DNA from: Promethearchaeia archaeon
GTDB taxonomy: Archaea > Asgardarchaeota > Lokiarchaeia > Sigyniarchaeales > SOKP01
DNA length: 7,134 nt
Direction: 5' to 3'
NCBI GenBank assembly: GCA_046497275.1
Contig: JAWOFX010000066.1
Location: 1-7,134 of the forward strand
The stretch's first letter is position 1, and every line of letters begins with the position of its first letter. The notes beneath the pieces are model-generated. The model did no database searches, was not told where the DNA came from, and worked only from the letters and a program-made list of their open reading frames with translations. Below, one piece after another: positions 3,531-6,374 of the stretch. A program made the translations under genes and the position numbers.

Positions 3531-4319
3531 ATGAAATCGAAAAAATATGTGAATAGCGGCGAGAAAAGTTTTATTGTGATTGAAGAGGAGGATGTGGAGA
3601 TCAAAGAAAATCCAACATTGATGTTTGGATTTGCTGGAGTAGGATTATTAGGACCCATAATTGCTAATGAAATGATAGAACAAATTCAAGATATCAAAGA
3701 AATTGGATATGTTGCATCAGATATGCTACCACCTATCGCCACCTTCCATCATGGAGAGCTTATGCATCCGTTTAGAATTTATTACACACAAAAATACAAT
3801 ATAATTTTGGGAATTTCTGAAGTTCCTTTTCAAATATCTTCAGCGTATAATGACCTTGCGAAAACTTTATGTAACTGGTCCCAATCTGAAGAAATTAAGG
3901 CAAAGGAAATTATTACATTCCAAGGTATTCCGAAAAAAGGGATGATTGACGAATTTCCAGTATATTATGCTGCTCAAGAAAATTCTTCAAGAAGGCTAGA
4001 TCAACTTAATATTGAGAAGGTTGATAAAGGAATCATAACGGGAGCTGAAGCGACTTTAGTAAATATAGCACTTACAAGTAAGTTAGAACCCATAGTGCTT
4101 TTCACACCAGTGTATCAAATTGCTACTCCTGAAGGGGCAGCGAGTATAATTGAGAAACTGAATCAAATCTATGGCATGAACATTGAAACTAAGGAATTAA
4201 TTGAAAAAGGTAAGGAAATCAAGGAAAAAATGCAAGATTTAGCAAATAAAGCAAGGCAATATAGACAAAAACAGTTAGCTGGTTCTCAGCAAGAAGGCCC
4301 TTATGAATTATACAGATAA
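3531..4319 (+). CDS. PAC2-family proteasome assembly chaperone/activator (PbaA/B-like), paralog 1; HbYX tail LYR
   Basis: 262 aa. GFAGVGLLGPII (PAC2 GxPGxGxVG-like), HPFRIY, SEVPF, TPEGAA, a C-terminal helix and an HbYX end. Confidence 0.88.
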   Translation: MKSKKYVNSGEKSFIVIEEEDVEIKENPTLMFGFAGVGLLGPIIANEMIEQIQDIKEIGYVASDMLPPIATFHHGELMHPFRIYYTQKYNIILGISEVPFQISSAYNDLAKTLCNWSQSEEIKAKEIITFQGIPKKGMIDEFPVYYAAQENSSRRLDQLNIEKVDKGIITGAEATLVNIALTSKLEPIVLFTPVYQIATPEGAASIIEKLNQIYGMNIETKELIEKGKEIKEKMQDLANKARQYRQKQLAGSQQEGPYELYR

Positions 4320-4342
4320 AATAATTTTTCTATAATTTTTTT
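4317..4342 (+). terminator. Oligo-T terminator candidate after PAC2 paralog 1
   Basis: TAAAATAATTTTTCTATAATTTTTTT immediately follows the stop. TTTTTCTATAA recurs after paralog 3. Confidence 0.45.
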
Positions 4343-4417
4343 AAAGCTGATGATTAGATTATGAAAAATACATTTAAATTTCATAGATCTAATTTTTAAA
4401 TTGGATTAAGTTTTTTC

Positions 4418-4439
4418 AAACATAGATGCAGTATAAAAT
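4418..4439 (+). promoter_or_regulatory. Putative promoter of PAC2 paralog 2: AAACATAGA motif plus TATA-like TATAAAAT
   Basis: AAACATAGA starts at -42 from the ATG and TATAAAAT at -28. The same arrangement occurs upstream of paralog 3. Confidence 0.45.
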
Positions 4440-4459
4440 ATAAAATCAAGGTAATTTTT

Positions 4460-5257
4460 ATGAAAAATATCAAAAAAGAATACGTATGCCCCCCTGGTAA
4501 GAATAGTAAAGTAGTTATCGAGGATGTCAGAGATAAAATAAAGGAAGGCGCTACTTTAGTTCTTGGTTTTGCAGGAGTTGGCTTAATAGGACCAATAATA
4601 GGAAACACTTTAATCGAGCAAATAGATGATTTAAAAGAGATTGGATTCGTAGCTTCTGATATGCTTCCCCCTATTTCAACATTTTATGACGGGAAATTGA
4701 AACATCCGTTTAGATTATATTACTCTCCAAAATATAATCTTATTTTAGGAATTTCTGAGGTTCCTTTTCAAATATCCTCAGCATATAATGATTTAGCTAA
4801 AACTATCTGTAATTGGGCGCTTTCAGAAGATGTGAAAGCAAAAGAAATTGTAGTCTTCCAAGGAATTCCTCAAAAAGGGATGATAGAAGACTTTCCTGTA
4901 TACTATGCTTCAGAGGACGCTCAAATCAAACAATTTGAAGATGATGGAGTAGAAAAAGTTGAAAAAGGTATTATTGTAGGTCCTGAAGCAACTATCATAA
5001 ATGAAGCATTAACAAACAAACTCAACCCATTAGCATTATTTACACCTGTTTACCAGATTCCAACACCTGAAGGTGCTGCCTCAATTATTGAAGTTTTGAA
5101 TAAACGATATAATCTAGATATTGATACTTCCCCATTATTGGAGGAAGGAAAAGAAATAAAAGAAAAAATGTTAGAACTTGCAGAAAAAGCACAACAATAT
5201 CAAAAAAAGCAACTATCAGAATCTAAAGAAGGCGGATATACTCAATATTATCAATAA
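4460..5257 (+). CDS. PAC2-family proteasome assembly chaperone/activator, paralog 2; HbYX tail YYQ
   Basis: 265 aa. GFAGVGLIGPII, HPFRLY and PTPEGAA motifs. About 66% identical to paralog 1 and about 71% to paralog 3 (hand count over 247 columns). Tandem TAA TAA stop. Confidence 0.9.
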   Translation: MKNIKKEYVCPPGKNSKVVIEDVRDKIKEGATLVLGFAGVGLIGPIIGNTLIEQIDDLKEIGFVASDMLPPISTFYDGKLKHPFRLYYSPKYNLILGISEVPFQISSAYNDLAKTICNWALSEDVKAKEIVVFQGIPQKGMIEDFPVYYASEDAQIKQFEDDGVEKVEKGIIVGPEATIINEALTNKLNPLALFTPVYQIPTPEGAASIIEVLNKRYNLDIDTSPLLEEGKEIKEKMLELAEKAQQYQKKQLSESKEGGYTQYYQ

Positions 5258-5270
5258 TAAATATATTAAT

Positions 5271-5290
5271 TAAAATAATTCTTTTTTATT
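5271..5290 (+). terminator. Oligo-T terminator candidate after PAC2 paralog 2
   Basis: TAAAATAATTCTTTTTTATT shares TAAAATAATT plus a T-tract with the paralog 1 downstream region. Confidence 0.4.
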
Positions 5291-5364
5291 GTTTAAACTT
5301 CATCCAAATTAATAAATCAAGATTGAGACTAATAAGTGAATTTTTAAAGCTTAATTTAAATATT

Positions 5365-5390
5365 AAACATAGAGAAAAGTTATTATAAAT
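5365..5390 (+). promoter_or_regulatory. Putative promoter of PAC2 paralog 3: AAACATAGA, BRE-like GAAAAG and TATA TTATTATAAAT
   Basis: AAACATAGA starts at -42 from the ATG. A purine-rich BRE-like element directly precedes the TATA at -27. Confidence 0.5.
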
Positions 5391-5406
5391 AAAGATGTGA
5401 ATATTA

Positions 5407-6201
5407 ATGGTTGTAAAAGAATACGTATGTAAGGCTGGGAAAAAGAGTAAAGTGGTTATAGAAGATTTTTCGGTTGAAATTAAGAATGATGCGACTATAA
5501 TTTTAGGATTAGCCGGGATTGGTCTTATAGGCCCAATAATCGCAAATACTATGATTGAACAAATTGAAGATATTAAGGAAATTGGGTTTGTAACAAGTGA
5601 ATATCTCCCTCCTATCTCTGTATTTTATTCTGGTCAGCTAAAACATCCGTTTAGGATATACTACTCTTTAAAGTACAATTTAATAATTGCTATTTGCGAA
5701 GTACCATTTGAAATTCCATCCGCATATAATGATTTAGCAAAAACAATAAATAACTGGGCTTTAAATGAAGATGTGCAGGCAAAACAAGTAGTGGTGTTTC
5801 AAGGAGTCCCTCAAAGAGGCATGATCGAGGAGTTTCCAGTATATTATGCCGCAGAAGAAGAACTAATGGAGTTTCTTGAAGAAAAAGGCGCAAAAATGTT
5901 TGAAAAAGGAATCATCATAGGACCAGAATCAACGATTTTAAATGAAGCATTGACGAATAAATTACAGGGATATGCATTATTTACTCCAGTTTATCAGATT
6001 CCTACTCCAGAAGGAGCAGCGTCTGTGATACAGTTATTAAATAAAATTTATAAAATGGATATTGACACTACTAAGTTGTTAGAAGAAGGCAAAGAAATCA
6101 AGGAAAAAATGTTGGATCTTGCTGAAAAAGCTCAGGAATTTCAGAGAAAACAGATAGCTGGAGAAGAATCTGCAGATTCTTATACCCAATATTATCGCTA
6201 A
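5407..6201 (+). CDS. PAC2-family proteasome assembly chaperone/activator, paralog 3; HbYX tail YYR
   Basis: 264 aa. GLAGIGLIGPII, HPFRIY and PTPEGAA motifs. About 59% identical to paralog 1 (hand count). Confidence 0.9.
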   Translation: MVVKEYVCKAGKKSKVVIEDFSVEIKNDATIILGLAGIGLIGPIIANTMIEQIEDIKEIGFVTSEYLPPISVFYSGQLKHPFRIYYSLKYNLIIAICEVPFEIPSAYNDLAKTINNWALNEDVQAKQVVVFQGVPQRGMIEEFPVYYAAEEELMEFLEEKGAKMFEKGIIIGPESTILNEALTNKLQGYALFTPVYQIPTPEGAASVIQLLNKIYKMDIDTTKLLEEGKEIKEKMLDLAEKAQEFQRKQIAGEESADSYTQYYR

Positions 6202-6225
6202 TATAATTATTTTCTTTTTCTATAA
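6202..6225 (+). terminator. Oligo-T terminator candidate after PAC2 paralog 3
   Basis: ATATAATTATTTTCTTTTTCTATAA directly follows the stop. Confidence 0.45.
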
Positions 6226-6374
6226 ATATTAAAAATAACAGACTTCTTCAGAAGATCGCATTTTAAAGGTTCTTTTATGAACATCATTACATAACTAACT
6301 CAATATTTTATAAAAATGAATTATTTATGGAATGTGCCTTTTTTGAAATCAGTATTTGGAAAATAATATTATGG

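Follow-up and report, generated by a model that had tools for sequence, protein, structure and literature searches.

Three neighboring genes of a Lokiarchaeial archaeon encode similar proteins that end in three different short tails, PYELYR, YTQYYQ and YTQYYR, and the question raised by this locus is whether the differences carry meaning for docking to the 20S proteasome. The stretch analyzed, referred to as the window, is the entire 7134-bp contig JAWOFX010000066.1 (C67) of a Promethearchaeota (Asgard) metagenome-assembled genome (MAG) of 3.85 Mb with 30.4% G+C, 98.9% completeness and 188 contigs. The three proteins, designated paralogs 1 to 3, are PbaA-type members of the PAC2 family with HbYX-class tails that probably serve proteasome docking, with a specialization specific to each ortholog group. 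Binding, an effect on the gate and specialization are what we infer from the family assignment, the terminal residues and their conservation.

Family, fold and tails of the three paralogs

Profile searches place all three proteins in the PAC2 family (PF09754). The scores of paralogs 1, 2 and 3 are 91.1, 100.2 and 98.6 bits, against a gathering score of 25.8 bits, and the matches cover almost all of the model. PAC2 is the only Pfam family above cut-off in the trio; neither an AAA nor a HEAT domain was matched, and an additional FKBP26_C match to paralog 3 lies below cut-off. Other members of the PAC2 family include PbaB, an archaeal activator, and the eukaryotic proteasome-assembly chaperones PAC1/PAC2 (Pba1/Pba2). 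The best NCBIfam model for the trio is TIGR00161 ("proteasome assembly chaperone family protein") with 128–131 bits (128 for paralog 1), far above the 31–49 bits obtained with the PbaB-type model TIGR00162. By these scores the trio is nearest to the PbaA-type branch of TIGR00161, yet is no equivalog.

Structural comparison leads to the same branch. The only PDB sequence matches are 3gaa (Ta1441 from Thermoplasma; E = 3.3e-37 with paralog 2) and 3wz2 (Pyrococcus furiosus PbaA; E = 1.7e-24). An AlphaFold2 model of paralog 2 built from 148 sequences has a mean predicted local distance difference test (pLDDT) score of 88, a predicted template modeling (TM) score of 0.86 and a last helix at residues 230–255. 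Foldseek returned 3gaa and 3wz2 as the top matches to this model (probability 1.00, TM 0.75–0.78), followed by 3vr0 (PbaB) and, lower down, by human PAC2/PAC1 in 20S assembly intermediates and actinobacterial PAC2 proteins. Database relatives from Promethearchaeota/Lokiarchaeota MAGs carry the names "PAC2 family protein" and "proteasome assembly chaperone family protein." On this evidence the trio are lineage-specific PAC2 paralogs of the archaeal PbaA/Ta1441 branch, arranged in tandem here, with pairwise identities of 58–69%. Each protein is predicted to have a compact α/β core and a long C-terminal helix, after which a short variable linker leads to a conserved hexapeptide at the terminus.

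Translation of the gene ends bore out the three tails as they had been predicted from the DNA. Paralog 1 terminates in ...QLAGSQQEGPYELYR (last residues GPYELYR, one stop codon), paralog 2 in ...QLSESKEGGYTQYYQ (GGYTQYYQ, two stop codons) and paralog 3 in ...IAGEESADSYTQYYR (DSYTQYYR, one stop codon). The intervals originally given for YTQYYQ and YTQYYR are correct, whereas 4302–4316, given for PYELYR, encodes only YELYR; the hexapeptide starts at 4299. Under the HbYX rule the third-last residue (P3) is small or hydrophobic, the penultimate one (P2) is Tyr or Phe, the last (P1) may be any and the C terminus is free, and in archaeal AAA regulators P3 is likewise small or hydrophobic and P2 Phe or Tyr (PMC3493965). 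L-Y-R, Y-Y-Q and Y-Y-R all conform, and by this sequence rule the trio tails belong to the HbYX class. A second code, Y-Phi, has been worked out for the human 20S, in which P3 must be Tyr and P2 either Tyr or Phe, positions P4–P6 contribute, and Thr or Ala is preferred at P1 (PMC8907193). Paralogs 2 and 3 fit its P3 and P2 positions, and paralog 1 does not, having Leu at P3.

The frequency of such ends by chance was gauged from 2885 crude open reading frames (ORFs) of at least 120 aa in the present genome. Ends of the form [LIVMFYWAC][YF]x occur in 4.9% of them and Y[YF]x ends in 0.55% (16 ORFs); among the genome's PAC2-family genes the counts are 5/5 and 3/5, respectively. Five of the other ORFs ending in Y[YF]x were examined as possible proteasome binders and encode a rhomboid protein, a ketol-acid reductoisomerase, an M50 peptidase, an A-type ATPase subunit and a leucine-rich repeat protein, which looks like background.

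Table 1. Positions of the three paralogs, their tails and related features; positions refer to the window unless a contig is named
Feature	Position	Strand	Description
Paralog 1	3531-4319	+	262 aa, PbaA/Ta1441-type PAC2-family protein, end PYELYR; PF09754 E 1.1e-25
Tail of paralog 1, P-Y-E-L-Y-R	4299-4316	+	canonical HbYX tripeptide L-Y-R at 4308-4316 (translation)
Paralog 2	4460-5257	+	265 aa, PbaA/Ta1441-type PAC2-family protein, end YTQYYQ; PF09754 E 1.9e-28
Predicted disordered end of paralog 2, residues 256-265	5225-5254	+	pLDDT <50; hexapeptide Y-T-Q-Y-Y-Q at 5237-5254
Tandem stop TAA TAA	5255-5260	+	after paralog 2; incidental
Paralog 3	5407-6201	+	264 aa, PbaA/Ta1441-type PAC2-family protein, end YTQYYR; PF09754 E 5.9e-28
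Tail of paralog 3, Y-T-Q-Y-Y-R	6181-6198	+	translation; orthologs
PbaB-type PAC2 gene	C167:29502-30290	-	TIGR00162; best PDB match 3vr0; tail DSYFR
PbaB-type PAC2 gene	C34:21434-22273	+	TIGR00162; best PDB match 3vr0; tail KSLYI

Tail conservation by ortholog group

Conservation of the tails was followed in 54 PbaA-type orthologs from 38 related genomes arranged in a maximum-likelihood tree. The penultimate residue is Tyr or Phe in 54/54. Paralogs 1 to 3 sit in three separate supported clades, and the backbone of the tree is a polytomy with one paralog-1-like sequence placed outside. The paralog-2 clade (support 96/90) ends Y[TS]xYYQ in all 9 members, and the paralog-3 clade (94/96) ends YT[QE]YY[RQ] with Arg in an inner subclade of six. 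The paralog-1 clade (100/100, on a long stem of 0.35) ends P[YS]xLY[RQ], and paralog-1 orthologs as a group (11 in the database plus 5 in the genomes) carry P-[YSA]-x-L-Y-[RQ]. In other families of the same order the PbaA-type gene is single and its tail ordinary (MYL, IYL, LYS, IYT, LYT, LFI or LFT). Within the present family the basal genus has YSQLFM and the remaining genera have Y-[TS]-x-Y-[YF]-Q.

The 120 database orthologs nearest to paralog 2 resolve the hexapeptide position by position. P6 is Tyr in 120, P5 is Thr in 107, P4 is Gln, Gly or Arg, P3 is Tyr in 116 and Phe in 4, P2 is Phe in 80 and Tyr in 40, and P1 is Gln in 118 and Arg in 2. Column entropies are 0–1.3 bits at P1–P6 and rise to 1.9–2.7 bits at P7–P13, where the residues are mostly Gly, Glu, Lys, Pro, Ser or Thr. 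This variability, together with the low pLDDT of the last ten residues in the model, upholds the flexible linker that had been proposed for paralog 2. An extra upstream Tyr had been proposed for all three tails; it holds for the paralog-2 group at P6 and gives way in the paralog-1 group, where P5 is Tyr, Ser or Ala (n = 11).

The Y[YF]x form is common inside the family-level clade and rare outside it. Among 198 database proteins of the clade, 180 end in Y[YF][QRK] and 11 in LY[RQ]; in 142 full-length representatives of 50% clusters from the wider PbaA-type family, 103 have ordinary Hb-[YF]-x tails and only 5 have Y[YF]x. A further ~20 of the 142 end in Tyr-aliphatic-Gly (YVG, YLG, YIG or YMG), with Tyr at P3 and outside the usual HbYX form; examples are proteins P0153, P0156, P0158, P0171, P0176 and P0184.

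The genome has two further PAC2 genes, both PbaB-type, and their tails are fixed as well. The C167 protein, which also has the Y-Phi residues at P3 and P2, ends in DSYFR, and [DE]SYFR occurs in 24/24 genomes of the family; PbaB-type proteins of two other families of the order (loci L100, L102 and L104) end in QSYIG, again a Tyr-aliphatic-Gly end with Tyr at P3. The C34 protein ends in KSLYI, and all 24 genomes sampled across the order, the present one included, have K[STV][LI]YI. Overall identity is 50–88% among the [DE]SYFR proteins and 46–89% among the K[STV][LI]YI proteins.

Random variation among orthologs, which the original prediction had set beforehand as the outcome that would count against it, is not what the sample shows. 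Every group retains a tail of its own across divergence at family to order level, and the tails are not drifting. This constancy extends to positions that the loose HbYX rule leaves free, and the alignments thus indicate that the tails are under group-specific selection. The object of this selection is most likely affinity or the preferred pocket or partner state.

Probable proteasome docking and competing explanations

Precedents for docking come from the same family. HbYX tails on archaeal PbaA/PbaB have been described since 2011–2013, and Methanococcus maripaludis PbaA is reported to use its HbYX for binding to precursor 20S (PMC3605417). P. furiosus PbaB is a homotetramer whose last three residues, together with alpha Lys68, mediate both its binding to mature 20S and the ~3-fold activation of the latter; P. 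furiosus PbaA and Ta1441 form pentamers and also have HbYX ends (PMC3605417). A literature search combining Asgard with PAC2 or proteasome assembly chaperone returned no paper. In the Thermoplasma 20S, the tail carboxylate pairs with Lys66, the Tyr hydroxyl bonds with Gly19 and the Hb residue lies among Leu21, Val24 and Ala154 (PMC10349882). By analogy, the free carboxylate of a trio tail would pair with the Lys66 equivalent in the pocket between two alpha subunits, the penultimate Tyr or Phe would touch the Gly19 region, and the third-last Leu or Tyr would fill the hydrophobic pocket. This would fasten the oligomer to the outside of the alpha ring in a precursor or mature particle, with paralogs 2 and 3 presenting the Y-[YF]-x (Y-Phi) form and paralog 1 the classic L-Y-x form.

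The characterized relatives differ in how closely they model the trio. P. furiosus PbaA (3WZ2) and Ta1441 (3GAA) share with it the Pfam family, the length, a core with a long C-terminal helix and a free HbYX-class end, but identity is only 26–32%, each is encoded by one gene rather than three in tandem, and two of the trio tails have Tyr at P3 inside a conserved six-residue motif. P. furiosus PbaB (3VR0) has the PAC2 fold and a disordered HbYX end needed for 20S binding, and it is the best experimental model for tail action, although the trio belongs to the other branch and the PbaB-type genes lie elsewhere in the genome. Eukaryotic PAC1-PAC2 (Pba1-Pba2) have a homologous fold and C-terminal HbYX or HbYX-like tails that enter particular alpha pockets, but they are 15–18% identical to the trio and act as a heterodimer on a ring of seven different subunits.

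The tails had been likened to those of PAN, Rpt5 and Blm10/PA200. This likeness stands at the level of the motif; beyond it the proper frame is the PAC2/PbaA/PbaB family with its known HbYX tails. YY-X as the tail type of Rpt5 and PA200 agrees with the literature, in which human Rpt5 ends ANLQYYA and PA200 fits the Tyr-Tyr/Phe pattern of Y-Phi (Opoku-Nsiah et al. 2022, PMC8907193). Paralogs 2 and 3 have Tyr at P3 and Tyr/Phe at P2 in common with these proteins, the Y/F interchange being confined to P2, and with human Rpt5 they also have Gln at P4, within the stretch up to P6 that contributes in Y-Phi tails. Rpt5, an AAA ATPase, and PA200/Blm10, a HEAT-repeat dome, are nevertheless unrelated to the trio; the likeness to them and to PAN is limited to the last three residues, and the Y-Phi code was set on the human rather than an archaeal 20S. 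Paralog 1 has the canonical Hb-Y-X form of PAN and lacks the AAA domain. The tail of M. jannaschii PAN is LYR, as Smith et al. are said to have reported in 2007.

The trio would not be alone at the alpha ring. The genome encodes eleven proteins with HbYX-class ends, among them three PAN-like proteins (IYS, IFV and IYS) and three Cdc48-like proteins (LFV, LYK and LYR), and together with the two PbaB-type proteins these ATPases, all ending Hb-[YF]-x, would compete with the trio there. The genome's own PAN-like ends differ from that of paralog 1, and the exact match to it is a Cdc48 paralog. This Cdc48-like AAA ATPase (contig C40, L066:922-3177, + strand) ends in SEELYR, so that its last four residues, ELYR, are those of paralog 1 (4305–4316). 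With this common end, the two proteins may compete for the same site.

Several points weigh against proteasome docking with group-specific specialization. The TIGR00161 scores of the trio fall short of the curated equivalog cut-off of 199.25 bits. P. furiosus PbaA, the closest characterized homolog, does not bind mature 20S despite its HbYX (PMC3605417); its C-terminal segments pack on its own pentamer, it forms a 10:10 cage with PF0014, and its proteasome-binding motif has been termed "enigmatic" (PMC6992696). Archaeal 20S and multivalent activators accept many tail sequences (PMC8907193), and because of this tolerance differing tail sequences need not differ in function. Finally, P1 is Gln or Arg in the trio, and Gln, Arg or Lys in 196/198 clade proteins, against the human Y-Phi preference for Thr or Ala.

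The likeliest of the competing explanations is the one first offered for these tails, that they are adapted to distinct alpha-alpha pockets in a heteromeric ring or to opening the gate with different strength. It depends on the alpha subunits. The present assembly has one alpha gene (alphaA; contig C156, 241 aa) and three beta-type genes, and tblastn with the second alpha type, alphaB, gave no further match in it. Two alpha genes are present in 22/24 genomes of the family, including all six congeners; alphaA and alphaB are ~43–47% identical and both types also occur in another family of the order, which makes the split older than the order. In two congeners examined, alphaB lies two genes from the ortholog of C7:363-1109, a gene that on the 4.3-kb contig C7 is separated from the contig end by 360 bp (the start of C7 was compared with L108, G002:C61, and L107, G006:C5). 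Because all congeners hold alphaB and synteny points past the end of C7, alphaB most likely lies in an assembly gap just beyond that end, together with a 182-aa neighbor gene. The conclusion that a single alpha gene makes the ring homomeric, which would have counted against this explanation, was dropped on the same grounds. In G002, ~6 kb beyond alphaB are likewise without counterpart in the present genome.

One of the beta-type proteins (217 aa; C51:15132-15671; L008:1441-2091, + strand; PF00227 E = 1.8e-48) reads VPGACGVAIK where the other two have GTTTV. It seems to lack the catalytic Thr1 and may be an inactive beta subunit, as found in eukaryotic rings.

A heteromeric ring is thus plausible for the lineage as far as its two-alpha precondition goes. 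The docking pocket was compared in the C156 alpha and eight alphaA/alphaB relatives, with residue numbers assigned by motif rather than by structure. FSP[ED]GRL.QVEY and the Lys in [EDQ]K[IL]F are kept, all as invariant columns, and the equivalents of Gly19, Glu25, Lys66 and Leu81 are common to both types, which differ beside the pocket: RLF versus RLY in helix 0, and GLT versus GLH at the residue after the Leu81 equivalent. These differences speak for pocket tuning, as do the fixation of the tails per ortholog group and the docking of eukaryotic PAC1 and PAC2 in two particular alpha pockets (PMC13022661). On the other side, alphaB is placed in the present genome by synteny and only alphaA is in the assembly, two alpha subunits could instead form separate rings or particles, and in a comparison of the basal genus with the rest, a handful of sequences, no alphaA/alphaB pocket change was seen to accompany the replacement of L-F-M by Y-[YF]-Q tails. 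Two alpha subunits alone do not predict tail types, because in sister families that also have two alpha genes the only PbaA-type gene ends in an ordinary [LIM][YF]x tail. Tuning to pockets or gate-opening strengths is therefore possible but doubtful.

Neutral drift after duplication would make the tails interchangeable HbYX motifs and the L/Y and Q/R differences meaningless. The HbYX rule leaves P1 open and asks of P3 only that it be small or hydrophobic (PMC3493965), preferences for particular tail sequences are overridden in multivalent activators (PMC8907193), P1 alternates between Arg and Gln within the paralog-1 and paralog-3 clades, and P2 alternates between Tyr and Phe in the paralog-2 group. 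Against these stand the near invariance of P1, P3 and P6 in the 120 paralog-2 orthologs next to a linker free to vary, and the two PbaB-type tails kept in proteins of widely differing overall identity. The scarcity of Y[YF]x in the wider PbaA-type family likewise means that this end is no common outcome of drift, and we regard drift as unlikely.

It is improbable that the tails serve self-packing into a closed, autoinhibited oligomer or another partner: the trio is PbaA-type and not PbaB-type, and P. furiosus PbaA behaves in this way, forming its PF0014 complex independently of the proteasome, but the element that packs in PbaA is a C-terminal helical segment, PF0014 binding survives removal of 30 residues (PMC6992696), M. 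maripaludis PbaA is described as using its HbYX on precursor 20S, the aromatic at the exact penultimate site of a disordered end in every ortholog sampled is the signature of carboxylate-anchored pocket docking, and no gene like a co-transcribed partner adjoins the trio, none resembling PF0014 having been seen in the Pfam annotation of the window genes, with no PF0014 reference compared.

Proteasome docking through HbYX-class tails with group-specific specialization thus remains the probable account, and its parts differ in novelty. HbYX on archaeal PAC2 homologs is textbook knowledge, and the trio genes are publicly named "proteasome assembly chaperone family protein." What the alignments add is a tail fixed per ortholog group next to a variable linker, a Y-[YF]-x form that matches human Y-Phi, hitherto described as a speciality of the human/eukaryotic 20S (PMC8907193), and PbaB-type tails that are fixed too. 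In this family the tails may have shifted from ...LFM to YTxY[YF]Q in the PbaA-type branch and from ...SYIG to [DE]SYFR in the PbaB-type branch, and the family also has two alpha paralogs next to four to five PAC2 paralogs whose tails are specific to their groups. A bolder proposal would have two independent PAC2 branches moving to Y-Phi tails, with mixed oligomers and pocket-specific tails as an archaeal counterpart or forerunner of PAC1-PAC2 docking; we consider it a long shot. If mixed oligomers did address different pockets, the family would be an experimentally simple system for the origin of pocket-specific docking. With up to five PAC2 paralogs, each with a nearly invariant tail, and two alpha-subunit paralogs, it amounts to a natural experiment, and the locus makes it possible to test whether, in a proteasome much simpler than the eukaryotic one, the choice of partner or pocket is encoded by tail sequence over and above the loose HbYX rule. 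Y-T-Q-Y-Y/F-Q, D-S-Y-F-R, K-S-L-Y-I and P-Y-E-L-Y-R are ready-made tails for such tests.

Layout of the locus

The three-in-a-row arrangement is found only in the present genome among those sampled; the others have two genes in tandem, with or without one elsewhere, and no third tandem copy was found in the extra flanks of seven genomes. Within the trio the genes are separated by gaps of 140 and 149 nt. The − strand flank holds an Fe-S assembly operon composed of an ABC ATPase, a SufBD-like protein, a redoxin and a 216-aa protein without a Pfam match, and the downstream flank holds a 4Fe-4S ferredoxin (Pfam).

The TAA TAA after paralog 2 had been read as protection of the free C terminus, a reading that does not survive comparison. 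A second in-frame stop follows 7.6% of the genome's ORFs (TAATAA follows 4.0%) and the tandem stop is present in only 2/54 orthologs; because of this background rate and this lack of retention it needs no special explanation.

Oligo-T runs follow each gene of the trio (4320–4459, 5258–5406 and 6202–6240), and A+T-rich spacers of 140–149 nt precede the genes. Read by eye, these features suggest three separate transcription units rather than one operon.

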